DNA from: an uncultured virus (IMG/VR IMGVR_UViG_3300010938_000034)
Taxonomy: Duplodnaviria > Heunggongvirae > Uroviricota > Caudoviricetes
Reading direction: 5' to 3' (one strand)
Virus record (IMG/VR): IMGVR_UViG_3300010938_000034
DNA: 20,000 nt
The notes under the pieces are model-generated. The model had not been told where the DNA came from, ran no database searches, and saw only the letters and a list, made by a program, of their open reading frames with translations. Shown piece after piece: positions 3,076 through 19,661 of this stretch (position 1 is the stretch's first letter; each line of letters begins with the position of its first letter). Position numbers and translations under genes: made by a program.

Positions 3076-3189
3076 ATGCCTTTTGGACAAGCTATTCCAG
3101 CAACCCCTGCTGACCCATTACAGGCTCAGGGATTTAGAACGCAGCGTGCGGAACTTCCAGAGGATTTGTGGCAACCTTTGTATGACCGT
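3076..3189 (+). CDS. putative major capsid protein, exon 1 (38 codons, MPFGQ...QPLYDR)
   Basis: AAGGAGGTG SD; the exon ends at U3189, which forms the U.G pair of intron helix P1; joins in frame to 4300. Confidence 0.85.
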
Positions 3190-4299
3190 AAACTTTATGC
3201 GGTCAATAAATTCCATGAAGTCGGAGAAAATCCAGAACGGATAACTCCGAGCCGAGCCTAAAAGGCAGGTGTAGAGACTAAAGTATGAAGGAACTTTCTC
3301 CAAAAAGAAGATCAAAAAAAATACTTTTAGGAACTTTAATGGGAGACTCTTCTTTATTTGAAACTTCCCATAAGAAAGCTATGTTTAAAACTACGCATGG
3401 AGCAGACCAGATCCACTATCTTATGTATAAATTGAATGCTCTCTATCCACTTCTGGGAAGTTTTAGAGTTTCCTTTACAGGTGGAGGAAGTTTTGAGAGA
3501 TGGAATGCAAAGAAAAGGATAACCGCTTGGTCGTTAAGCTCTACCTATCTTAAACATATCTACGATGATTTCTATTCCAATAAAATTAAGAAGGTAAGGC
3601 TTAACGTTTTAAGAAGAATGGATGAGTCTTCTTTGGCTTTCTGGTATATGGATGATGGTTGTTTAGCAAAATCAAATGGAAAGTTTTATGGAATCCATTT
3701 AAATACTCAAGGATTCGATCTTGAGGATCAAGAAACCATCATCAAATATTTTAGCGAAACATGGAAGATAAAATTTCATATTACTGAAGAAAGAAAAAAT
3801 AATAAAACCTATTACTACTTGAGAGCGAACAAGGAAGATTCAGAAAGATTTTTAAATCTAATTAATCCTTTTATTTGCAGTTCCATGCTCTATAAAGTAG
3901 ATCCTTCATACGAAAGAATGGAACATTCCGATAGGGATGAAGATATAGTCCGAACCTTGCAGGAATGCAAGGAGATTATCAGAAATGATAATCCTTCGGA
4001 AGATTCTAAGATTGAACTAAATGGAGAAATTTTAGAGGATATATCCAAAAAAATTGAGACCAAAGGCTATTTTGTTAAAGTGAATCACTGGAGGCAGAAA
4101 ACTCCAATCATTTTTTTTAGAGTAAGTGGGGACTATGATTCATTAGAAAAAATTAAAATGGTCTTTGGTGGATGCATTTACTTTAGTAGAGTTTGGATAT
4201 ATCAAGCTACAATAAATAGTTTCAAAGAAAAAATATTCCCAAAAATTTCTCCATTCCTGAAAACAAATAAATTTAAGAATCTTCCGATGTAACATATTG
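3190..4299 (+). ncRNA. group I self-splicing intron (1110 nt) with internal LAGLIDADG ORF
   Basis: P1 TGACCGT 3183-3189/GCGGTCA 3199-3205 with U.G at the splice site; P3 TTCCAT 3211-3216/ATGGAA 3918-3923; P4 TCGGAG 3221-3226/CTCCGA 3245-3250; P7 GACTA 3276-3280/TAGTC 3946-3950, preceded by J8/7 AAGATA; P8 3924-3939; P9 hairpins with GGAA and GAAA tetraloops (3955-3972, 3974-3993); terminal G4299; P10 TTTAT 3194-3198 pairs with exon-2 GTAAA. Confidence 0.93.
3285..4292 (+). CDS. intron-encoded LAGLIDADG homing endonuclease (two-motif type) with C-terminal extension
   Basis: Motifs ILLGTLMGDSSL and SLAFWYMDDGCL, followed by LNTQGF; the ORF lies wholly inside the intron. Confidence 0.88.
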   Translation: MKELSPKRRSKKILLGTLMGDSSLFETSHKKAMFKTTHGADQIHYLMYKLNALYPLLGSFRVSFTGGGSFERWNAKKRITAWSLSSTYLKHIYDDFYSNKIKKVRLNVLRRMDESSLAFWYMDDGCLAKSNGKFYGIHLNTQGFDLEDQETIIKYFSETWKIKFHITEERKNNKTYYYLRANKEDSERFLNLINPFICSSMLYKVDPSYERMEHSDRDEDIVRTLQECKEIIRNDNPSEDSKIELNGEILEDISKKIETKGYFVKVNHWRQKTPIIFFRVSGDYDSLEKIKMVFGGCIYFSRVWIYQATINSFKEKIFPKISPFLKTNKFKNLPM

Positions 4300-4848
4300 G
4301 TAAATTACCCCAATGCTGGGACTACGCAGCTGTCGTTTTTCTCAACTCCTATGGGTCAGTCGGCAACATTAATTACAGGTGTGGGTGCGGCAGCAACAAA
4401 AGTTAAGGATTATAGGGATACCAATATGCAGAATGCTAATGTTGTTCCTACAAAACTTTTTAAATTTGTGGGAATCAGCATTGCATTCATTAATCAGATG
4501 CCAGGAGATCCAAACAATGCTGCCGATAGAGATAGGGTAAGGAACAATGCCTATCTTAGATTCAGGATTGTAGACAAGGATATTCTTTATATTCCTTTAG
4601 TCTGCATTCCCGAAGTGAATCCATTAGTTGTTGGTTCAACAACTGTTACAGCAACAACCATTTTGGGTTCTGCTGGTGGAGGTGGGCAGAATGTTCCAAT
4701 GTATAAGCTACCTATCCCTGTAACTTTGAATCCTTACGAGAACTTTAGTGTAGATATTGTGCTGTCTGCTGCTGTTGCTCTTGCAAGCAGTTCTTATAGC
4801 ATGGATATCTACATGATACTCCAAGGATTCATGAGAAGGCCAACTTAA
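4300..4848 (+). CDS. putative major capsid protein, exon 2 (182 aa; spliced product 220 aa; probable single jelly-roll)
   Basis: No SD or ATG of its own; in-frame junction LYDR|VNYPNAGTTQLSFF; beta-strand-rich, with C-terminal LPIPVTLNPYENFSVDI...IYMILQG pattern; capsid role inferred from composition and gene context. Confidence 0.7.
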   Translation, partial: VNYPNAGTTQLSFFSTPMGQSATLITGVGAAATKVKDYRDTNMQNANVVPTKLFKFVGISIAFINQMPGDPNNAADRDRVRNNAYLRFRIVDKDILYIPLVCIPEVNPLVVGSTTVTATTILGSAGGGGQNVPMYKLPIPVTLNPYENFSVDIVLSAAVALASSSYSMDIYMILQGFMRRPT

Positions 4849-4904
4849 CGAAATTATTAAGGATTTTCGTTTAGCAAGAAATTGCGAAGAGCAATTTCGG
4901 GAGG
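4847..4904 (+). promoter_or_regulatory. two tandem hairpins abutting the SD of the free-standing endonuclease gene
   Basis: AACGAAA 4847-4853/TTTCGTT 4865-4871; GAAATTGC 4878-4885/GCAATTTC 4891-4898; GGGAGG at 4899-4904. Confidence 0.5.
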
Positions 4905-4909
4905 AAGAT

Positions 4910-5707
4910 ATGGATATACCAAAAGAGGATTTAGCTTATATGGCAGGGTTTTTTGATGGTGAGGGATACATCTCCTTTTTTAAAGTAAGAGGAGAGGATT
5001 CAGTTGAATCTGGAATAACCCAAACTATTATGGAACCTTTGCTGTTATTTGCTAAATACTTCGATGGTAATATCCATAAAGGGAGAGTAACCCGAGGGGG
5101 ACTCCAGATATATAGGTTTAGAACCTCAAGTAAAGAGAATATTGGAGTCCTCCTTTCTTCCCTATTTCCTTATTTGATAGTTAAGAAATCGAAGGCTATG
5201 CTTGCGTTGAAATTTATTGGGAATGAGATACCTCAGGAGAGTGCGGATGAGAAGTTTCTTATTCCTTATATGGCTGGATTTTTTGATGCAGAAGGTTCGA
5301 TATCAGTAAGAGTTCGGAAAGAGGGCAAAAAAGTTAAAGTTTATGGTAATAAACTTCAACCATTAATTGTTATGCAACAGACCTGTATCGAACCGCTTCT
5401 TTTATTTAAAAAAACTTTTGATGGATATTTATATGAAAAAGGTTCAAAAACTCAAAAAGGTTCACCTATATTTTATTACAGACTTAACCTTTCGCAGATT
5501 CCCAGATTCTTTGAACTCCTTGGAAAGTATCTGATTGTTAAGCGTCAGCATGCAGAATTGGTTTTTAGACTTCAGCAGATAAAGTTGAAGCATAATGGTA
5601 AAGATCCAAAGATTCATGAGAAATGGGATATTGCGAAACAGATTATAGATTTGAATTCTAAGAAAGGGAATAAAGAGAATTGTAAAATTCTTCAACTTAT
5701 TAATTAA
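4910..5707 (+). CDS. free-standing double-motif LAGLIDADG homing endonuclease
   Basis: LAYMAGFFDGEGYI and IPYMAGFFDAEGSI motifs; own SD; lies between two intact genes with no intron core around it. Confidence 0.9.
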   Translation: MDIPKEDLAYMAGFFDGEGYISFFKVRGEDSVESGITQTIMEPLLLFAKYFDGNIHKGRVTRGGLQIYRFRTSSKENIGVLLSSLFPYLIVKKSKAMLALKFIGNEIPQESADEKFLIPYMAGFFDAEGSISVRVRKEGKKVKVYGNKLQPLIVMQQTCIEPLLLFKKTFDGYLYEKGSKTQKGSPIFYYRLNLSQIPRFFELLGKYLIVKRQHAELVFRLQQIKLKHNGKDPKIHEKWDIAKQIIDLNSKKGNKENCKILQLIN

Positions 5708-5733
5708 AATAAAAATTAAAGGAGGAAAATAAG

Positions 5734-6510
5734 ATGGCATGGAGAGAATATTTTATATATGGAATTAATTTTAGTAGTATAACTGCAGGTGATGGAACAT
5801 TATTTACAAGAGATATTATTAGGATGGATAGTGATTCTGATTTTGAACTTCAAAAAATAGTAGCTATAGCAACAAGTAGAAACTTAAGGATAAGAATTAT
5901 TGATGATTCAACTGGAAGGTTTTTAATAAAACAATCAGCAAGTTTGAGGGATATGGCAGGAGGTAGTATTTTAACACCTTTTATATTACCAAGACCTTTT
6001 CAGATTCTAGCAGGCTCAACATTAACAATTGAAGTTGCAGATTCTTCTGGAAAAAGTAATTCTTTAAGGCTTTATTTTCATGGTGCAAAAATAAGACCAG
6101 GAGACCCGCCTTGGGGAGTTTATGATAATGTTACTAAAAGAATAGTTATGAAAAAGTATAAAGCTGTTTTACCATTTATTTACAATACGGGAGTCCAAAC
6201 AGTTTCAGGAAGCTTATCCACTTATACAAGAATTGAAGTTGATAATGATGCACATTTTTTAATTCAAAAAATAACAGGATTTTCATCTCAGGCTATTTTA
6301 CTTGATTTCAAAGATATGCCTAGAGATATTAGCTGGCAGAATATAGCTATCCATCACGAAGCAATTTTAGGTAGCGGAGACTTTCCTAATATTTTATTTG
6401 CTAACAGATTTATACCAAGAGGTTCGGTTATATCTATAAATGTCCAGAACTTATCTTCAAGTCAAGCTACCTTTGAAATAAATCTTATAGGAGTGAAATT
6501 ATATGAATAA
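5734..6510 (+). CDS. putative capsid-associated protein made of two tandem homologous beta-sandwich domains
   Basis: Internal repeat: YFIY..MDSDSDFELQKI..PFIL..GSTLTIEV..FHGAKI versus PFIY..VDNDAHFLIQKI..PNIL..GSVISINV..LIGVKL. Confidence 0.6.
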   Translation: MAWREYFIYGINFSSITAGDGTLFTRDIIRMDSDSDFELQKIVAIATSRNLRIRIIDDSTGRFLIKQSASLRDMAGGSILTPFILPRPFQILAGSTLTIEVADSSGKSNSLRLYFHGAKIRPGDPPWGVYDNVTKRIVMKKYKAVLPFIYNTGVQTVSGSLSTYTRIEVDNDAHFLIQKITGFSSQAILLDFKDMPRDISWQNIAIHHEAILGSGDFPNILFANRFIPRGSVISINVQNLSSSQATFEINLIGVKLYE

Positions 6511-10711: not shown

Positions 10712-10727
10712 AAAGGAGGTGAATAAA

Positions 10728-11021
10728 ATGCAGGAAGTCAATTTTGGACAATATGCCTTACCAGTGATTCTAATGGTTATTTTGAGTTTTATCTACAAAG
10801 TTTTTGGAGAAGGAGATGGTTCAGGAGCTATTTCAAATCGAGCAAAACCTATAATTGCTATATGTGTTGGAATGGCTTTAGGAATTATTGGTTTATTTTA
10901 TAATGCGGTTGAGTTGACATTTAAAAACTTTGTAGATTATTTGCTTTATGGATTTATGACAGGTTGCTCAGCTGTTGGATTATGGGAAGGTTTTAGAGCA
11001 ACTATAAATCCACAAAAATAA
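10728..11021 (+). CDS. holin-like membrane protein (3 hydrophobic segments)
   Basis: AGGAGG SD spaced for ATG 10728; three predicted TM helices in about 97 aa; adjacent to a lipoprotein gene. Confidence 0.55.
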   Translation: MQEVNFGQYALPVILMVILSFIYKVFGEGDGSGAISNRAKPIIAICVGMALGIIGLFYNAVELTFKNFVDYLLYGFMTGCSAVGLWEGFRATINPQK

Positions 11022-11033
11022 GGAGGTTAAAAT

Positions 11034-11399
11034 ATGAAAAGAAAGATTTTTATACCGATAATGTTGGCAATGTTTTTAATTTCATGTGCAACGATTCAAG
11101 ATCAGTGGAATAAGCTTACTCCTGATGAGAAAGCAAGAATCATTATTAATGACCTTCAAACACAGCTGTCTAATTTATGGGATGTAGGGAAAGCTTATGT
11201 GGAGGCTAATCCAAAGTATCTTGATGAATGGAAAAATAAAATTGTCCCTATGTTTGATACAGCTAATAAGAATATTAAAGTAGCCATAACACTATCCAAA
11301 TTGAATCAGATAACTCCTGATATGGTTTATGAAAATATTCAACCTGCTATTAATTCAATTATTGTTATGCTTGTCCAGATTGGGGCAATTAAAAAATAA
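11034..11399 (+). CDS. lipoprotein, helical (possible spanin-like lysis accessory)
   Basis: MKRK, hydrophobic core, then lipobox LISC. Confidence 0.7.
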   Translation: MKRKIFIPIMLAMFLISCATIQDQWNKLTPDEKARIIINDLQTQLSNLWDVGKAYVEANPKYLDEWKNKIVPMFDTANKNIKVAITLSKLNQITPDMVYENIQPAINSIIVMLVQIGAIKK

Positions 11400-11939: not shown

Positions 11940-12473
11940 ATGGCATTTACATATTATAGATTTAAACCTTCAAAAATAGAGCAAAAAAATTTTTCAGGAT
12001 GGTGGGATGAATTCTGGGGAAGTTTGTATTCATATTTCAGAAGTATATTTTATAAAGAAGAATATACACAAGAGGAAGCTCCTTATTACTATGAAGAAGA
12101 ACCTAAAGAAAAGACAATTGATGATATTATAGAGGAAAAAAGTTTGATTTATGGAGTTCCATCTAATATTGTTAGAGCTATTATAAAAGTTGAATCTAAC
12201 TTTAATCCATATGCTGTTTCTATAAAAGGTGCTAAAGGTTTGATGCAGTTAATGGAATCTACTTTTAGATGGTTAGGTTTTGATCCAAATTACATTTTTG
12301 ATCCTGAAACGAACATCGAAGCGGGAGTTAAATATTTACGGTATTTATGGGATAAATATGGAAATTTAACAGATGCAATTGCTGCTTATAATGCTGGTAG
12401 AGTATTAAAATATATGCGGACTGGAAGATATGTTAACCAAAGTTATGTTGATAAAGTTTTAACTTATGCATAG
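11940..12473 (+). CDS. lytic transglycosylase (SLT domain) with N-terminal amphipathic segment
   Basis: AIIKVESNFNPYAVS.KGAKGLMQLM, DPETNIEAGVKYL and AIAAYNAG motifs. Confidence 0.93.
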   Translation: MAFTYYRFKPSKIEQKNFSGWWDEFWGSLYSYFRSIFYKEEYTQEEAPYYYEEEPKEKTIDDIIEEKSLIYGVPSNIVRAIIKVESNFNPYAVSIKGAKGLMQLMESTFRWLGFDPNYIFDPETNIEAGVKYLRYLWDKYGNLTDAIAAYNAGRVLKYMRTGRYVNQSYVDKVLTYA

Positions 12474-12482
12474 AGGTTTATT

Positions 12483-13499
12483 ATGTTTTTAGGTAATATA
12501 CCGCAGCAAAATTTAGGACAATTTTCATTACCAAAAGAACCTGTTGATTTGAGTATTTCAGTAGCTAAATTAGGTGTTACAGCAGGTCAGATAGGAGCAC
12601 AATATGCAGGTGGAGTTGCTTTAGGGTTAACAACTACGGCTTGGATGGGAATAGGAGTTGCACTTGCTGCTTTAGGAGCTATATATGGAATTGTTAAAGC
12701 AAAATGGAAAAAGGAAAGAGCAAAAGAAAAAGCAAGAATGGCCTTTTATAGGGCTATAAATCAAATAGGAATTGAATTAATAGACAAGGTTTATGGAATG
12801 AAGATTCCTGGATGGAAGTTTCCTGAAGTTTTAGAAGATCCAAGTAATGAGTATTACCAATTAGGTCTTTTATATTATAATTGGTCAAAAACTGACCGTA
12901 AAAATAGTTATGAAATAGCAAGTTGGATTAAATCAAAAGGACTTGAGCCAGCAAGATTTATAGGAGCTGATAATGTTCCAGAAGGTTTGTCTTTAGATTA
13001 CGATGTTGATTATATTGCTGATCCTGAAAAATACTTAATTGGAAAAGAAGCTCTTGAAGCTATGGGATATGATAAGTCTCAATTTGTTAATTTACCTGTT
13101 CAGTATTTTGTAAGACTTATTGATATAATACTTGAAATTCCTCATGCTTTTATGGAACTTCAAGCACAAATGATAAAGGCAGATTTAGAATATCACTTAA
13201 GAGAAGGAGGATTTGATCCTAAAGTAATTTTTGATAAAGTTATGCCTTCTGAAACTATACCTCCTACAATGTATGAAATTACTGTATCTCCTGAAACAAA
13301 GCAAGTGGTAATACCAAAAGAAGCTATTTCTTTAGAACCTGTTAAGCCAGAAGAAGTGATTCCGACTGGAAAAGAAGTTAAACCTTTGGAAGAAAAAGGA
13401 GAGACTATTCAAATTGCAGGTCTATCGGTTAATAAAAGTTTGTTAATTTTATTAGGAGTAGGTTTATTAATTGCTATGCTAAAAAAGAAGGAGTTATAG
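12483..13499 (+). CDS. membrane protein with N-proximal TM and C-terminal anchor
   Basis: Gly/Ala-rich hydrophobic segment at about aa 40-72; Pro/Glu-rich linker; ends IAGL...LLILLGVGLLIAMLKKKEL. Confidence 0.7.
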   Translation: MFLGNIPQQNLGQFSLPKEPVDLSISVAKLGVTAGQIGAQYAGGVALGLTTTAWMGIGVALAALGAIYGIVKAKWKKERAKEKARMAFYRAINQIGIELIDKVYGMKIPGWKFPEVLEDPSNEYYQLGLLYYNWSKTDRKNSYEIASWIKSKGLEPARFIGADNVPEGLSLDYDVDYIADPEKYLIGKEALEAMGYDKSQFVNLPVQYFVRLIDIILEIPHAFMELQAQMIKADLEYHLREGGFDPKVIFDKVMPSETIPPTMYEITVSPETKQVVIPKEAISLEPVKPEEVIPTGKEVKPLEEKGETIQIAGLSVNKSLLILLGVGLLIAMLKKKEL

Positions 13500-13500
13500 C

Positions 13501-13854
13501 ATGTTTTATGGTTTTTGGGATATAGCATTACCTGTTTTAAATACTGCTATTTCAACAGGAGGTCAAGTATATAGTGCTGTTATAAATAAGGAAGCTGCAA
13601 AAACTGTTGCGGAAATACAAGCTCAAACTGCTCAGGCTCAGTTAGCCACACAGGAGAGATTAGCTCAATTACAACTTGAAGCTTTAAAATCTTCAAATCT
13701 TAATACAGCAAGCTCTTCTGCTTATAGACCTACAACAGAATATGTTCCAGAACCAACTGTTGCTGGACTGGTAACTGGGCAGGTTGGAGGATTTCCAGTG
13801 ATTTATTTATTGTTAGGAGGATTATTATTATTTTTATTAATTAAAAAGGACTAA
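13501..13854 (+). CDS. tail-anchored virion membrane protein (paralog of 16314..16715)
   Basis: Starts MFYGFWD; Ala/Gln coiled coil; ends GGFPVIYLLLGGLLLFLLIKKD. Confidence 0.7.
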   Translation: MFYGFWDIALPVLNTAISTGGQVYSAVINKEAAKTVAEIQAQTAQAQLATQERLAQLQLEALKSSNLNTASSSAYRPTTEYVPEPTVAGLVTGQVGGFPVIYLLLGGLLLFLLIKKD

Positions 13855-13870
13855 ATTAAAGGAGGTTAAA

Positions 13871-14950
13871 ATGAGGACATTTGGTAGAATTCCTTCATTA
13901 AGAGAATTAAGAATGGCACTATCGGGTTTTGGCATACAAGAAGCACCTGTTTTAACTCAATCTTATATACCACCTGGAGCTATGTATGCAAGTTTTCCTG
14001 GATTTGAGGGCAAATGGAATGTATATGCAATGAATAGACCAATTGGAACAATGGAATTCTGGAGTGAAGGAGGTCAGTTAAAAGGAAAGTTTTCTTTTGC
14101 ATCTGATCCATTATTAGATATTATAAGTTCTTATGTATTAAGTTGGAGAAAAATCCCTATTCCTTCATTTGAAAGTGAAATTCCAATGTCTAATCTTAAT
14201 GTTGATTTTAATGCAAATAAAATAACTTTTAGATTATTAGGAAGACCATATCGTATGGATCAAAATGAAATTTGGGGATTATTCTTAGGAGAAGCTTCTA
14301 TAGCTGCTAATCAAATAATAGGTAGTTTAACCTTATATGGAATTCTTACTGGATCTGCTTCTCCTAGAGCTGAAGAACCATATGTAACAGAAAATCCAGG
14401 AGAGCCTAGATACCGTGCATATAAAAATTTATTATTTACTGTGATTGCACCTGAATTTACTAATAGTCCTTTTTTAATACAACATTTTGTAGGTGGATAT
14501 GACCTTGAGTATCAAGTGCTTTTGGGAGCATATCAATATTACATTATTAATTTTAATGCAATAAAAGAAATGGCTCCAGCTTTTACTCCAGCTTTAGTGG
14601 TTGTAAGGTCTCCTACACCTGGAGTAACAATGGAAGTTACAGTTCCTGTAGTAACTTTGCCTGAAAAAACTGAAGAGGTAAAACAAGAATTACCCACTCC
14701 CGAACCTACTCCACAGCCTACAAGCGTAAATCCTCAACCAACAGTTGCAGAAACAGTTCCTGAAGAACCCATTGTAGAAATAAAACCAAAAGAAGAATTG
14801 GTTTCACCACCTCCAACTCCATTAGCAGCTGGATTTCCTAAGTGGGCTTGGTTACTGCTTTTAGGTATAGGGGCTTTTATTCTTTTTAAACCTAAAAAAG
14901 CTCAAGAAATTTTAAAGGTAAAGCCTAAAAGAAGAAAAAAGGAGGTTTAA
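13871..14950 (+). CDS. tail-anchored protein with Pro/Glu/Thr stalk
   Basis: LSGFG near the N-terminus; PTPEPTPQP linker; AAGFPKWAWLLLLGIGAFILFKPKK. Confidence 0.7.
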   Translation: MRTFGRIPSLRELRMALSGFGIQEAPVLTQSYIPPGAMYASFPGFEGKWNVYAMNRPIGTMEFWSEGGQLKGKFSFASDPLLDIISSYVLSWRKIPIPSFESEIPMSNLNVDFNANKITFRLLGRPYRMDQNEIWGLFLGEASIAANQIIGSLTLYGILTGSASPRAEEPYVTENPGEPRYRAYKNLLFTVIAPEFTNSPFLIQHFVGGYDLEYQVLLGAYQYYIINFNAIKEMAPAFTPALVVVRSPTPGVTMEVTVPVVTLPEKTEEVKQELPTPEPTPQPTSVNPQPTVAETVPEEPIVEIKPKEELVSPPPTPLAAGFPKWAWLLLLGIGAFILFKPKKAQEILKVKPKRRKKEV

Positions 14951-14953
14951 TAT

Positions 14954-15172
14954 ATGTTTTATGGATTTGGACAAACTGCTCAACAGGAATTAGAAGAAAT
15001 TTTAAAAGCTTCTTGTCCTCCAAAAGAAGAGGAAAAAGCTTCTATATGGGAAGCTAAGCTTGCTGGATTTCCAGTGCTTTTATGGATTCTACTTGGAGGG
15101 GCTTTTTTGTATTTCTTAAGTAAAAAAGAACCAATTGAAATGAAGGAGGTGTCCGAAAGTGTTTCAAGATAA
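14954..15172 (+). CDS. small tail-anchored protein
   Basis: Starts MFYGFGQ; LAGFPVLLWILLGGAFLYFLSKK. Confidence 0.7.
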   Translation: MFYGFGQTAQQELEEILKASCPPKEEEKASIWEAKLAGFPVLLWILLGGAFLYFLSKKEPIEMKEVSESVSR

Positions 15173-15800
15173 TAAAGAAGTTAAAGATTTTTATGTTCCA
15201 GGTGAAACTTATATTCTTGATGATTCTTCTGTTGTTTTTGAGGAAATGCCAGAAGAATATTTAATGAGCAAAAAATTACTACCTGAATGGGCATATGCTG
15301 AATGGAATTTACCTAAAGCAGTAAATGGAGAAATAGGAGATGGAGCTGAAATAAGTCCATATAGACCATGGAGAAGAAGAGCCAAACAAGTAATATTTGA
15401 AAAATTAAAAATGATGCCTGAACAATCTCAGATTTATTTAAAACCAGGAGAATCGGAAGAGGTTTCAGAAATGCCTCAACCTCCTACTACTTTTCTTGAT
15501 GGAGTTCCAAATTTTGAAGAGGTTCCTCAATTCTTAGGAAATTTCTCATTTGGTCAAGTATCATCCGAAAGAGGAATTTGGGGAGAATTAGTATCTGCTT
15601 TAACAACTGCTGGAATGCAAATTCTTGAAGCTGAAAAGAAAAAATATGAAGCAGAAATAGAAGCTTATAAAAAGACTGTAACTCCAACACAAGCTCCCAA
15701 AGCAGCAGGAGAAACTACAATGAGCAAAATTTTACCTTTTGCTCTAATTGGGGGTATTTTATATTTAGTTTTGAAATCCCAAAAGAAGACAAAAAGATGA
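15159..15800 (+). CDS. tail-anchored protein with acidic N-terminal region
   Basis: GTG start after AAGGAGGTG; internal FLGNFSFGQ followed by an amphipathic helix; ends ILPFALIGGILYLVLKSQKKTKR. Confidence 0.7.
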   Translation: MFQDNKEVKDFYVPGETYILDDSSVVFEEMPEEYLMSKKLLPEWAYAEWNLPKAVNGEIGDGAEISPYRPWRRRAKQVIFEKLKMMPEQSQIYLKPGESEEVSEMPQPPTTFLDGVPNFEEVPQFLGNFSFGQVSSERGIWGELVSALTTAGMQILEAEKKKYEAEIEAYKKTVTPTQAPKAAGETTMSKILPFALIGGILYLVLKSQKKTKR

Positions 15801-16012
15801 AAAAACTGGTTTATAAAAGATTTAGGCCAAAACCTTTAATCCCTTTTGAGGATATTAATAAAGTTTTCTGGAATATAAGAGATATAGCTGATACTTATTT
15901 AAATATAAGATATCCCGAAGTGCCTGATCCTGATTTATTCATTGCAGAAATAGAAGATCAAATAGATAAATACTATACTATATATAGAAAGGAGGAAGAC
16001 CTATATGAATAA
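15797..16012 (+). CDS. hypothetical protein
   Basis: ATGA-coupled to the upstream gene; overlaps the downstream start. Confidence 0.6.
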   Translation: MKKLVYKRFRPKPLIPFEDINKVFWNIRDIADTYLNIRYPEVPDPDLFIAEIEDQIDKYYTIYRKEEDLYE

Positions 16013-16280
16013 CCAATTTAGTCAAGACTGGATGGAGTTTTATTATGATGAGAATTGGGGAGTTCCAGATTATCCATTCTCAATCAAAGAATTCCAAGCT
16101 CCAACTGCTCAGGAAGCTCAACCGACTGTTGCTCAGCCTTTACCAGCAGAAGCACAAGTTCCAGCTGTTAGTCAAGCTCCAGCTGAACTTAAAGCTTCTA
16201 TTTTGGAGAAAATACCTACTTGGGGATGGATTGCCATTGGAATAGGGGCATTTTTATTTTTTACAAGAAAAAAAAGATAA
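16005..16280 (+). CDS. small tail-anchored protein with Ala/Pro/Gln linker
   Basis: AGGAGG SD; ends IPTWGWIAIGIGAFLFFTRKKR. Confidence 0.7.
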   Translation: MNNQFSQDWMEFYYDENWGVPDYPFSIKEFQAPTAQEAQPTVAQPLPAEAQVPAVSQAPAELKASILEKIPTWGWIAIGIGAFLFFTRKKR

Positions 16281-16313
16281 TTTAATCTAAAGTTTTTTAA
16301 GGAGGTGATATAG

Positions 16314-16715
16314 ATGTTTTATGGATTAGGCCAGTATGAAGAATATTCACCTGATATGTGGAAAGGTTCTATATATGACTTAAGTTCTGTATCTACAGGA
16401 GCTCAAAGCTCTTCATCTCAAGCTCTTCCTGTTTTACAAAGTTTAATTAGTTCAGCAGGAGTTGTTTTGGGAAAATATTTTGAATTATCAGCGGTAAAGG
16501 AACAGGCCGAAGCTGCTAAAACTCAAGCAGAAATTTTGGCTAAATTAAGAACTCCAACTACGACTACAGCAATTCAACCAGCAGCAATAACTCCAACAAC
16601 AAAGATAGCTGGGGTTGAATGGCCTATACTAGCTATAATTGGGTTTGGGATTTTTGTAGTGCTTAGAGGCAGAGAAAGAAAGGAATCTGTAAGAAGAAAA
16701 AGAAGGAAAAAATAA
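16314..16715 (+). CDS. tail-anchored virion membrane protein (paralog of 13501..13854)
   Basis: Starts MFYGLGQ; ALPVL..IS..G / EAAKTQAEI shared with 13501; IAGVEWPILAIIGFGIFVVLR followed by a basic tail. Confidence 0.7.
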   Translation: MFYGLGQYEEYSPDMWKGSIYDLSSVSTGAQSSSSQALPVLQSLISSAGVVLGKYFELSAVKEQAEAAKTQAEILAKLRTPTTTTAIQPAAITPTTKIAGVEWPILAIIGFGIFVVLRGRERKESVRRKRRKK

Positions 16716-17029
16716 TGAATACAACACTAATTATTCTAAGTGTTGCAGGATGGATACTGTTAGGTATAATAATTCCTGTTTTTAGGTATATAATTAAAAA
16801 ATTATATGAAGAAATTGACTCTTTAAAAAATTGGAAGAATTCTATGGAGGAAGAAATAATGATAAAAACAGAGCATAATCAATTATGTAATCAAATACAA
16901 AAAGAAAATATTCAATTAATTTTTAATAAAATTGAACATATGATGAAAATACATAAAGAGTGGTTAGAAGAACGTTTGGGTAGATTAGAATCTGATATGA
17001 AATTATATGTTCAAAAGCAAAAGGAGTAA
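16715..17029 (+). CDS. N-terminal TM, coiled-coil protein
   Basis: TAATG coupling; hydrophobic aa 5-24, then heptad-like helices. Confidence 0.65.
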   Translation: MNTTLIILSVAGWILLGIIIPVFRYIIKKLYEEIDSLKNWKNSMEEEIMIKTEHNQLCNQIQKENIQLIFNKIEHMMKIHKEWLEERLGRLESDMKLYVQKQKE

Positions 17030-17032
17030 ATC

Positions 17033-17257
17033 ATGCAAATTAAAAAAGAGGATGATATTATTGAAATGGAGAAGGATGATAATGGAACTTATCATCCTAT
17101 AACTCCATATAGGAGACCAAAAATAGAAGTCCATATGCATAATGAGATAAAGACACCACCTGTATATCAATTTTTTGAAGGTTTCATAATCGGATTAGAA
17201 GCAATTGAAAGATTCTTAAGAGTAAGTCAGAGAATTACAAAGGATTGGTTTAAATAA
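17033..17257 (+). CDS. hypothetical protein
   Basis: AAGGAG SD; TAATG-coupled to the next gene. Confidence 0.6.
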   Translation: MQIKKEDDIIEMEKDDNGTYHPITPYRRPKIEVHMHNEIKTPPVYQFFEGFIIGLEAIERFLRVSQRITKDWFK

Positions 17258-17841
17258 TGACTGAATGGGCTGATAAAAATAAAATATTTATTTCTTTACC
17301 AACTGAACAAATATTAGCTATTACTGCATATGGAGAAGCACGTTCAGAAGGTGGAGAAGGAATGATGGCTGTTCTCAATGTAATTAAAAATAGAACTAAA
17401 GATTTAAATAGATTTGCAGATAGTGAGATATTAAGTTTAACTGGAAGCCCTTATCATGCTGTTATTCTAAAACCTTATCAATTTTCGATGTATAATCCTG
17501 GAACTTATTCAAGAGAAATAGCTGAAGATTTAGCAAATAATTTTTATGTAAAGCTTTTAAGTGATAATGAACTTCAAATTGCTTATAAATTAAGTGTTAT
17601 GCTTTTAACAGGAGATTTAGTAGACAATACAGGAGGAGCAGACCATTACCATTCGGTTACTGTTAAACCTTCATGGTCAAGCGAATTTCAAAAAACTGCA
17701 CAAATCGGGAACCATATATTTTATGCTTCGGTTCCAGGATTAGGAGTTACACTTGCAGGTTTAACTGAAAGTCCTATTTCTTTGGTTTTATGGTTAGGTT
17801 TAATAGTTGGAATTACATATAGATATCTAAAGAAAAAATAA
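17257..17841 (+). CDS. SleB/Hydrolase_2-family cell wall hydrolase with C-terminal membrane anchor
   Basis: TAYGEARSEG..GMMAVLNVIKNR, PYQFS, TGGADHYH, PSW and IGNHIFY motifs; ends LAGL...LVLWLGLIVGITYRYLKKK. Confidence 0.9.
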   Translation: MTEWADKNKIFISLPTEQILAITAYGEARSEGGEGMMAVLNVIKNRTKDLNRFADSEILSLTGSPYHAVILKPYQFSMYNPGTYSREIAEDLANNFYVKLLSDNELQIAYKLSVMLLTGDLVDNTGGADHYHSVTVKPSWSSEFQKTAQIGNHIFYASVPGLGVTLAGLTESPISLVLWLGLIVGITYRYLKKK

Positions 17842-17856
17842 AAGGAGGTTATAATT

Positions 17857-18042
17857 ATGGGAAAATTAATATTAGGCTTTGTTTTAGGATTTATCTTATC
17901 AGATGCTATTACAAATAAGTATCCTAAAGCACAGCAATTCAAAATTTCTCCTAAAACTTTGGAAAATCTTTTTCCTCCTATCGAAACAAAACAGCAAGTA
18001 AAAGGGTTTGAAAATGTCCCAAGATTATTAGTAAATTTTTAA
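17857..18042 (+). CDS. small protein with hydrophobic N-terminus
   Basis: AAGGAGG SD; MGKLILGFVLGFILS. Confidence 0.6.
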   Translation: MGKLILGFVLGFILSDAITNKYPKAQQFKISPKTLENLFPPIETKQQVKGFENVPRLLVNF

Positions 18043-18055
18043 GGAGGTGATAATT

Positions 18056-18508
18056 ATGTTTTTTGGAGCTGTTCCTCTTTTAATGAAAGGATCTAAAGGT
18101 GAAGCAGTTAGACAGTTGCAAGAAAATTTAATTGCATTAGGATTTCAATTACCAAAATATGGAGCAGATGGAATATTTGGAGATGAAACAGAAAAAGCAG
18201 TTAAAGATTTTCAATACACATGGGGACTTACTGTTGATGGAATTGCAGGCCCCGAAACAATGGCGGCAATGGATCAGGCATTAAACCTATTAGCTGAAGG
18301 ATTATGGAATCCATCCCTAGAACCATTACAGTATGTTCCTAGTGTAACTCCAACAGTTACTCCTTCAGCCATTCCAGCACAATTACCCAGTATTGTTCAA
18401 GCTATACCTCAAAAAATAGCTGGAATTGATAAAAAATGGTTTATAATTGGTGGAGCTGCTGTAGTAGGAGTAATGCTTTTATTTAAGCCCAAAAAGAAAA
18501 GACAATAA
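18056..18508 (+). CDS. peptidoglycan-binding domain (PG_binding_1-like) protein with C-terminal anchor
   Basis: SD spacing favours ATG 18056 (MFFGAVP); LMKGSKGEAVRQLQENL..LGF...DGIFGDETEKAVKDFQ...GLTVDGIAGPET; ends IAGIDKKWFIIGGAAVVGVMLLFKPKKKRQ. Confidence 0.9.
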   Translation: MFFGAVPLLMKGSKGEAVRQLQENLIALGFQLPKYGADGIFGDETEKAVKDFQYTWGLTVDGIAGPETMAAMDQALNLLAEGLWNPSLEPLQYVPSVTPTVTPSAIPAQLPSIVQAIPQKIAGIDKKWFIIGGAAVVGVMLLFKPKKKRQ

Positions 18509-19295: not shown

Positions 19296-19661
19296 ATGAA
19301 TAAATTCAGAATTAAAATATGTCCATTAGCCGAAAAAGACCATAAAAAAGACCAAAGAGCTTATGCCCATTGGGGTCATTATCCAAAAACGATATGTATT
19401 TCACAATCAATATATAGACTTCCCAAACAGGTTTCATTAGCACTTCTTCTTCATGAATTAGGTCATGCTTTATGTGATGGAGAGTATGAAGAAGAAGCTA
19501 ATAAAACAATTTACAATCTGTTTAAAATAAAAATAAAATATGCTCCAGAAACTCCATGGGGAAAAAGATTACAATATATCTTAAGCCCAGAAGTTCCTAA
19601 AGTCATTAATATCCTTAAAAAATTTATTTCTGAATCTTCTTTGAAACCTTTTCTGCAATAG
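19296..19661 (+). CDS. small zincin-like metallopeptidase
   Basis: LLLHELGHAL (HExxH) with downstream EEEAN acidic helix. Confidence 0.65.
   Translation: MNKFRIKICPLAEKDHKKDQRAYAHWGHYPKTICISQSIYRLPKQVSLALLLHELGHALCDGEYEEEANKTIYNLFKIKIKYAPETPWGKRLQYILSPEVPKVINILKKFISESSLKPFLQ

Follow-up and report, generated by a model that had tools for sequence, protein, structure and literature searches.

Little is known of how phages with an internal membrane choose their membrane and entry proteins and put them in place; the proteins known from PRD1-type viruses are few and have no obvious common tag. In PRD1 the virion transglycosylase P7/P14 is held by a hydrophobic helix near its C-terminus (residues 214–243 of 265), and small membrane proteins, delivery proteins, the transglycosylase and a holin are encoded in a block downstream of the capsid gene. 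Among viruses with archaeal hosts and an internal membrane, HCIV-1 and HHIV-2 (VP10 and VP13) and STIV (A55) have small virion proteins with C-terminal transmembrane helices that lie under the capsid or pentons, as described in the part of PMC6414509 used here, which reports neither a common motif beside the helix nor modular cargo. Here we analyse a stretch of 20,000 nucleotides from an uncultured virus (IMG/VR record IMGVR_UViG_3300010938_000034; hereafter the window), in which nine neighbouring plus-strand open reading frames (ORFs), between positions 12483 and 18508, encode proteins with a common C-terminal layout: a short Ala-Gly-type (AG) motif, a hydrophobic helix and a basic tail. On balance we favour the view that the nine tails are portable tail anchors, which fasten wall-cutting, entry and other particle proteins to the inner membrane of the virus. 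A dedicated sorting system, or cleavage at AG, goes beyond what the evidence supports as the principal explanation.

The motif, which we call the collar, reads [ILVAK]-[AG]-[GS]-[LFVIE] across the nine ORFs. It is followed after 0–8 residues by a single hydrophobic helix with GxG or GG at its centre (GxxxG in 17257), and then by the Lys/Arg cluster that closes the protein, with 2–10 basic residues among the next 15. Counted from the motif, 17–22 uncharged to weakly charged residues precede the tail's first basic residue, and the distance from AG to the helix centre is 9–14 residues. An earlier note, made from the letters of the window alone, had listed these ORFs and their tails; all are present and end as it quoted, save for the position of one VAGL.

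Two of the nine carry recognizable domains, both related to the cell wall. The 194-residue product of 17257–17841 is a SleB-type cell-wall hydrolase (Pfam Hydrolase_2, E = 4.9e-16) with its anchor at nucleotides 17752–17841 (LAGL, a helix with GxxxG, tail RYLKKK), and 18047–18508 encodes a peptidoglycan-binding protein (Pfam PG_binding_1, E = 2.1e-19) with its anchor at 18416–18508 (IAGI, a helix with GG, tail KPKKKRQ). The latter ORF had been placed at 18056; the frame is open from a GTG at 18047, but a Shine-Dalgarno site fits the ATG at 18056 (MFFG), which is the likely start. Three shorter proteins begin with MFYG. The first, of 117 residues (13501–13854, MFYGF start), has an anchor at 13783–13854 with VGGF, a helix with a central GG, and the tail KKD; the VAGL originally assigned to it exists, but lies 8 residues upstream of VGGF, the motif that adjoins the helix. 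The second, of 72 residues (14954–15172, MFYGFGQ start), has an anchor at 15059–15172 with LAGF, a helix with GG and a tail that begins KKEP. The third, of 133 residues (16314–16715, MFYGLGQ start), has an anchor at 16605–16715 with IAGV, an EWPIL helix with GFG, and a 16-residue tail with 10 Lys or Arg within its first 15 residues.

The remaining four are more varied. The 338-residue protein of 12483–13499 starts with MFLG and has, besides its anchor (13413–13499; IAGL, then 20 residues up to the tail KKKEL), an extra hydrophobic helix within the chain (residues 54–73), after which comes KAKWKK; a search for homologues returned only itself among 8000 candidates. A long Pro/Thr/Glu linker leads to the anchor of the 359-residue protein of 13871–14950 (14825–14950; AAGF, a helix with GIG, a 20-residue tail with 7 Lys or Arg within its first 15). 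The 213-residue product of 15159–15800, whose GTG start is uncertain, has its anchor at 15702–15800 (AAGE, 21 residues to the tail, tail KSQKKTKR). In the 91-residue protein of 16005–16280 (anchor at 16191–16280, a helix with GIG, tail RKKR) the collar reads KASI, with Ser in place of Gly, the variant that had been reported for this ORF. No Pfam family matched any of the seven proteins other than the two wall-related ones at E ≤ 0.01, and PHROGs gave no family for seven of the nine. In the ESM Atlas, 13871–14950 and 12483–13499 had no usable match (query-normalised template-modelling scores <0.31, feature scores <0.9).

The cargo domains differ, as had been claimed. In an all-against-all BLASTP comparison of the nine, similarity was almost confined to linkers and tails, the exception being 13501 and 16314, which also matched near their N-termini; the tail–tail matches were weak (E 1e-8 to 1e-3 in a database of nine). 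The proposed lack of an N-terminal Sec signal also holds. No signal peptide was found in any of the nine, in which the maximum 10-residue hydropathy of the first 40 residues was 0.14–2.1, compared with 2.7–3.1 in seven window proteins with N-terminal signal or anchor segments.

Is the AG motif more than chance? AG occurred within the 18-residue juxtamembrane stretch in 8 of the 9 tails, but in only 1 of 9 equal control stretches further upstream. Local shuffles over 30 residues gave a mean of 0.9 and a maximum of 5, and none of 2000 reached 8. The fuller pattern [LIVMAF][AGS]G[LIVMF] was present in 7 of the 9 juxtamembrane stretches, against a shuffle mean of 0.2. Over all 39 window proteins there were 42 AG dipeptides in 6307 residues, with 29.7 expected. 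As a further control we took the 18 proteins with C-terminal helices among the annotated proteins of PRD1, PM2, Bam35c and P23-77. AG was present in 4 of them, and AG with a hydrophobic residue after it in none (window against control, Fisher p = 0.0027 and 4e-5, respectively). AG is therefore commoner in the window tails than in other tail-anchored proteins, and the comparison that the earlier note had offered as a test of its own idea does not refute it.

The case for a viral membrane comes from the capsid. The 258-residue protein of 5734–6510, which has 28 homologues in the protein database, was modelled by AlphaFold as two beta-barrels with a predicted local distance difference test score (pLDDT) of 90. 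Foldseek listed capsid chains of PM2 (P2; 2vvf_A, probability 0.99), STIV and phiCjT23 among its jelly-roll matches. The top rows from VIA-align, a search that does not depend on Foldseek, all covered the second barrel and were HHIV-2 (Z 9.1), STIV A223 (8.6), HCIV-1 (8.5) and P23-77 VP17 (8.3), values that the tool itself rates as middling. These four capsids come from viruses with an inner membrane. On this model, the protein is a vertical-jelly-roll capsid protein like those of internal-membrane viruses, and the virus is probably tailless, bacterial and membrane-lined.

Relatives were reached through these capsid homologues. Neither a single-protein locus scan with the capsid protein nor a tblastn search of phages gave a match, so that all relatives came from the protein database and alignment; the alignment of capsid homologues led to 54 loci (50 metagenomic, 3 viral and 1 from a genome), and loci and genomes of relatives are labelled L001–L054 and G001–G003 below. 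Those with enough flanking sequence have arrays of several genes whose products end in a helix and Lys/Arg. With a hidden Markov model (HMM) of the nine window tails, 19 proteins from relatives outscored every opposite-strand decoy (best decoy 5.5 bits), in keeping with the expectation that the tail belongs to this virus group. The collar itself differed by lineage: AG[LF] in L001, whose capsid protein is 78% identical; mostly QA[GST][MIL] in L012; [GS]MD in G003 and L027; and mixed in other relatives. AG was found in 22 of 78 tail-anchored proteins of relatives (shuffle mean 11.9; 3 of 2000 shuffles reached 22) and [AGST][GS][LIVMF] in 47 of 78 (mean 21.0; 0 of 2000 reached 47), counts that are not independent. 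From these differences and counts, the strict AG is a lineage-specific form of a looser, family-wide motif of small residue, Gly or Ser, and hydrophobic residue.

The collar is kept in orthologues. The orthologue of 13871–14950 (L001:19092–20024) retains IAGL, and that of 14954–15172 (L001:20522–20734) retains KLAGFP. Three orthologues of 16314, with 41–60% identity, retain both an MF[YFL]GLGQYE start and KIAG[VI]EWPI before the helix, while the Pro/Thr linker between these ends cannot be aligned; the Gly of the collar is invariant in 5 of 5 sequences, the L002 orthologue included. As judged from these alignments, the collar is likely to be under purifying selection, since it is kept in orthologues while linkers diverge. 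When a profile of five 16314-family sequences was run against 1.84 billion representatives, 32 proteins reached E ≤ 0.001. With P0032 from an earlier search these made a tabulation of 33 (P0030–P0062), at most ~50% identical to one another. In this set AG followed by a hydrophobic residue was present in 23 of 33 and the looser small-[GS]-hydrophobic form in 29 of 33, with a tail consensus of about AGFDLGSNWPILAIIGIGAFLVLRGKK. As the profile includes the tail, its matches lean towards the tail.

The tail also moves between proteins. The SLT transglycosylase encoded immediately upstream of the array (11940–12473) is tailless in the window, but in G001 and L012 its counterpart closes with a helix and a basic tail. 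A SleB-type orthologue in G003 (51% identity) has the helix and basic tail without AG. Gain and loss on orthologues, and presence on unrelated proteins, are what a modular tag, as first proposed, would lead one to expect.

The tail is paired with a second motif at the other end of many of these proteins. Five of the nine (12483, 13501, 14954, 16314 and 18056) start with MF[YFL]G, while none of the 30 other window proteins starts with MF; over all loci, an MF start was found in 17 of 87 tail-anchored proteins and 24 of 847 others (p = 1.6e-8). Behind MF comes a hydrophobic-G-Q motif, in some proteins only after a basic leader of up to 28 residues. The leader before FGQ spans 0–28 residues, and many N-termini begin directly with MFGQ. 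In the 33-protein tabulation, 24 start with MF and 26 have [FL]G[QEI] within the first 40 residues. Five of its members matched the profile through the tail only (P0052, P0054, P0057, P0059 and P0061) and have different N-terminal domains; all five start with MF and all but P0052 have FG[QE], so the two ends are linked independently of the alignment. The hydrophobic-G-Q motif is also N-terminal in the small capsid protein, in the holin-like protein and in a transglutaminase-fold enzyme, which is described below. At the level of DNA, a 35-nucleotide cassette recurs at three gene starts (14939–14973, 16299–16333 and 18041–18075; 69–83% identity); it consists of AAGGAGGT, a spacer and ATGTTTTATGG, and joins a strong Shine-Dalgarno site to the MFYG start.

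As tail anchors, the nine proteins would each end in a portable segment of ~25–45 residues, in which a juxtamembrane collar (hydrophobic-A-G-hydrophobic) is followed by 0–8 interfacial residues, often with Trp or Pro, by the GxG or GG helix and by the Lys/Arg end. Because there is no signal peptide, the helix would be inserted after translation and the N-terminal domain would stay on the cytoplasmic face. That face would become the capsid-facing side of the viral membrane, which would turn the strongly basic tail towards the packaged DNA; the long Lys/Arg tails, with up to 10 basic residues in 15, look as if they face DNA rather than act as mere topology signals. The anchor would fasten cargo such as the SleB-type hydrolase and the peptidoglycan-binding domain to the membrane, much as PRD1 P7 is fastened, and we infer that AG most probably serves at the membrane surface, either as a hinge or for recognition. 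We prefer this account because it is the most economical, with PRD1 P7/P14 and HCIV-1 VP10 and VP13 as precedents. Compared with PRD1-type tail-anchored proteins, the locus has a vertical jelly-roll capsid protein (by model), wall-degrading cargo in 2 of 9, and a single C-terminal helix without a signal peptide, with an extra helix in 12483. It differs in that P7 has neither a basic cluster after the helix nor an AG-plus-hydrophobic collar, and in that PRD1, with a 15-kb genome, has far fewer proteins with C-terminal helices. HCIV-1 and HHIV-2, which supply some of the closest structural matches to the capsid protein of 5734–6510, differ in their archaeal hosts. The idea that the tails recruit entry proteins to the viral membrane fits this context of a membrane-containing virus with wall-degrading proteins. 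The motif with its excess and conservation, the lack of signal peptides, the capsid fold and the wall-enzyme cargo are observations; the membrane in the particle, the virion location, the topology and the role of AG are predictions.

Several points weigh against the anchor account. We infer an internal membrane from the modelled capsid fold, for which VIA-align Z scores of 8–9 are, by the tool's own note, only middling. If the N-terminal domain is cytoplasmic, the basic tail would have to cross the membrane, contrary to the positive-inside rule, so that the proposed topology is tentative. The 78 tail-anchored proteins of relatives came from a crude longest-ORF gene call with close genomes included, and the resulting counts are not independent of one another. 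When an HMM was built from the 16314-orthologue tails, only 1 of the 8 other window tails (13871) outscored the top reversed-sequence decoy, so the nine do not form a single tight sequence family, and a database scan with one tail HMM, as the earlier note had proposed, would have little power because such a model does not generalise. Finally, a plain anchor does not explain the strict AG, the variable AG–helix spacing or the N-terminal MF..GQ motif.

These last features fit a short linear site that is read by a partner, for which a conserved cysteine enzyme of the virus family is the obvious candidate. A protein of ~178 residues with invariant Cys, His and Asp (LDCDD, HVY, FD; L001:592–1128 and homologues) is present in 14 loci (11 aligned) and in G003, that is, in every relative that covers its position, which is upstream of the capsid genes and directly before a conserved pair of tail-anchored proteins. 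The copy in G001 matches Pfam Transglut_core. PHROGs had no family for this protein. Its model (pLDDT 86) had LapG as best Foldseek match (4u65_E, E = 2.8e-5; also 4fgo, 4fgp and 4fgq), followed by putative cysteine proteases, transglutaminases and the viral pseudomurein isopeptidases PeiP and PeiW; a profile match in the PDB to 4u65_E had E = 0.056. In L038, and in gp34 of the phage SSIP-1, the enzyme is itself fused to a tail anchor. In L011/G002 (gene at L011:1793–3322) the catalytic Cys is immediately preceded by an insert of ~330 residues that, by eye, has features of an intein and an endonuclease. The gene is not in the 20,000-nucleotide window; because of synteny with L001, it should lie upstream of the window start, elsewhere on the 65,027-bp contig.

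Could AG-hydrophobic, and perhaps the N-terminal hydrophobic-G-Q, then be sites of this LapG-like enzyme, which would cut the proteins off their anchors at maturation or entry, or cross-link the N-terminal Gln? There are precedents for short sites of this kind. LapG releases the adhesin LapA from its retention module by cutting at a short, Ala-rich, di-alanine site, and vaccinia I7L cleaves AG/X sites, among them AG/F and AG/L in G7L and sites near both ends of the membrane protein A17 (both as given in the parts of PMC10990149 and PMC1959187 used here). AG-X is present in 8 of the 9 window tails. The variable AG–helix distance, the hypervariable flanks and the invariant Gly would suit linear recognition, as would N-terminal leaders of 0–28 residues before FGQ, and the presence of the enzyme beside the tail-anchored pair in every relative that covers its position, its fusion to the tail, its likeness to LapG and the intein-like insert at its catalytic Cys all argue in the same direction. 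Against this, cleavage and cross-linking are both putative, and the gene is placed outside the window by synteny. The fold also includes wall isopeptidases (PeiP and PeiW) and true transglutaminases, so the enzyme may be another anchored wall enzyme. An AAG that resembles the di-alanine site is found in only 2 of the 9 tails, the rest having [ILV]AG, GG or AS; lineages with other collars retain the same enzyme; and many N-termini begin MFGQ, which leaves a leader of only 1–3 residues. LapG, moreover, is periplasmic, calcium-dependent and tied to c-di-GMP (cyclic diguanosine monophosphate) signalling, its di-alanine site lies at the N-terminus of the substrate, and the enzyme of this virus family is known from relatives. 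I7L belongs to another protease clan and to a eukaryotic virus and host, and is an analogy only; no I7L-type (Ulp1/adenain-like) family was found among the Pfam matches of the window, G003:C23 and G001 proteins. A complex prediction of the enzyme with residues 1–48 of a 70-residue L001 tail protein scored 0.00, which, as it was run without controls, is uninformative either way. We regard processing by this enzyme as possible, although we doubt it. Its fullest form would be a two-ended address-and-processing code, in which particle proteins have a hydrophobic-G-hydrophobic-G-Q leader and, ahead of a Gly-centred helix and a DNA-facing basic tail, an AG-hydrophobic collar, both of them read by a virion-borne LapG-like enzyme that cuts or cross-links during maturation. 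This is a tentative proposal that we would not expect to hold; if it did, the code would be a prokaryotic counterpart of poxvirus AG/X processing and of adenovirus adenain, in the same capsid lineage.

The best available evidence that such tails are borne by particle proteins comes, by annotation and analogy, from SSIP-1, a cultured icosahedral phage with an internal membrane according to the part of PMC6356626 used here. The L001 enzyme matched SSIP-1 gp34 with 30% identity over 72% of the query (E = 6e-11), the only clear match among 50,697 phage records. Both gp34 and gp41 are annotated as structural and end in a helix. Of the ten SSIP-1 proteins with C-terminal helices, five have AG in the juxtamembrane position, three of them as AGF. 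The likeness therefore covers the transglutaminase-fold enzyme and AGF-type tails. It does not extend to the basic end, as SSIP-1 tails close with only one to three Lys and have no long Lys/Arg runs. For the tails it was also drawn by eye: the 16314-tail HMM scores SSIP-1 tails no higher than decoys, and tblastn of window proteins against SSIP-1 12–36 kb gave no credible match (a single hit, E = 0.031). As SSIP-1 is cultured and shares the enzyme and the AGF-type tails, the question can be tested at the bench.

The tails might instead be alike by descent only, an ancestral small tail-anchored gene having been duplicated and its ends recombined onto new domains, with AG left functionless. The tandem arrangement of the genes would suit this, as would the paralogue-like character of 13501, 14954 and 16314, which share both ends, the 35-nucleotide ribosome-site-plus-start cassette at three gene starts and the weak BLASTP matches between tails. 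Yet AG plus hydrophobic has survived in 23 of the 33 representatives, of which no two are more than ~50% identical and whose adjoining linkers cannot be aligned, and the same collar is found on unrelated cargo. At the level of DNA the tails have no long repeats in common, only short matches of 65–85% identity, the best being 36 nucleotides at 75%, and so there is no sign of recent gene conversion. We consider an origin of the likeness by descent alone unlikely.

A further alternative places the nine outside the particle, as lysis proteins that are made late and tethered to the host membrane. The array follows a holin-like gene (10719–11021; PHROG holin families, E = 7e-7), a lipoprotein-like gene (11034–11399) and the SLT transglycosylase, and 2 of the 9 proteins bind or cut peptidoglycan. 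However, 7 of the 9 have no wall-related domain, the delivery and membrane genes of PRD1 also adjoin a holin, and gp34 and gp41 of SSIP-1, which have such tails, are annotated as structural. Long Lys/Arg tails are, to our knowledge, not a feature of lysis proteins. A role confined to lysis is, in our judgement, quite improbable.

Least probable is a role of the tails as a sorting signal, recognised by an enzyme of sortase, exosortase or rhombosortase type from host or virus and cut at AG so that the protein is attached or released. Motif, helix and basic tail come in the same order as in the LPXTG, PEP-CTERM and GlyGly-CTERM signals. The Sec signal peptide that such systems need is, however, present in 0 of the 9, none of their curated models gave a credible match, and their dedicated enzymes were not found among the proteins of the window and of two whole related contigs. 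The likeness drawn by the earlier note therefore stands for the order of the parts and goes no further. No LPXTG-type pentapeptide precedes the helix, where the motif is [ILVAK][AG][GS][LFVIE] instead. Among NCBIfam CTERM models at E ≤ 10, the nine matched only PEP_CTERM (13501–13854; E = 2.6, 9.1 bits, where the cut-off is 16), which is noise. Sortase, exosortase and rhomboid families were absent from the Pfam matches of 39 window, 70 G003:C23 and 92 G001 proteins.

Returning to the portable anchor, its novelty is a matter of degree. A literature search for the tag, or for a transglutaminase-like enzyme in membrane-containing phages, found nothing relevant, in line with the statement that no description of the tag was known. 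C-terminally anchored virion membrane proteins as such are, on the other hand, known (PMC6414509, in the part used here). New relative to the literature found are the conserved collar, its use on many unrelated proteins, and the fact that it goes together with a second motif at the N-terminus and with a core transglutaminase-fold enzyme. An uncultured family with contigs of 40–77 kb marks many unrelated proteins with a portable anchor and a second, N-terminal motif, and these together with the adjoining cysteine enzyme offer a testable handle on virion membrane targeting. Were the cleavage real, it would represent a maturation system undescribed for bacterial viruses. The tail could also serve as a metagenome marker for membrane-containing viruses and as a membrane-display tag.

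The window has a G+C content of 29–37%, and its long ORFs are almost all on the plus strand. Besides the SleB-type hydrolase and the peptidoglycan-binding domain, Pfam and PHROGs identified two LAGLIDADG endonucleases, a DUF2341 protein, the holin-like protein and the SLT transglycosylase. Two small proteins in or near the array deserve mention. In the product of 16715–17029 the elements of the tail (AG, helix, basic residues) stand N-terminally (SVAGWILLGIIIPVFRYIIKK), in the position of a signal anchor. Just downstream of the array, 19296–19661 encodes a small HExxH protein (HELGH), whose G003 copy is 39% identical and barely matches Peptidase_M48 (E = 2.7e-4). It has no PHROG family, a PDB sequence search returned one row (E = 0.18, not credible), and no evidence ties it to the tails. 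G003 also encodes a papain-family (Peptidase_C1) protein.

In the capsid module, a small capsid-type gene is split across 3076–4848: residues 4–42 of the L001 orthologue correspond to 3076–3198 and residues 40–220 to 4300–4845, with a LAGLIDADG endonuclease ORF (3285–4292) between the halves. This looks like an intron with a homing endonuclease, as judged from the alignment; Rfam searches of the window and of 3100–5800 matched neither a group I intron nor any other family, and returned a single row, rivX (E = 0.17). The second LAGLIDADG endonuclease gene (4910–5707) is free-standing between two capsid-module genes. The 304-residue protein of 2060–2974 has several runs of 5–7 Arg, a hydrophobic, Gly/Ala-rich C-terminal third and no Pfam or PHROG family; from its composition, it may be a DNA-condensing, membrane-associated core protein.

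One relative (L054, or G003:C23), 45.5 kb in length, lies in a metagenome-assembled genome labelled Woesearchaeota. It encodes an SLT protein, a SleB-type hydrolase, a peptidoglycan-binding domain, a bacterial DNA polymerase III alpha subunit, ThyX and an integrase. Woesearchaeota were dropped as a candidate host, as its peptidoglycan enzymes and bacterial-type polymerase make wrong binning or a bacterial host more likely. G001, in comparison, is 61,447 bp long, with inverted terminal repeats and a family A polymerase, and replication modules vary widely across the virus family.

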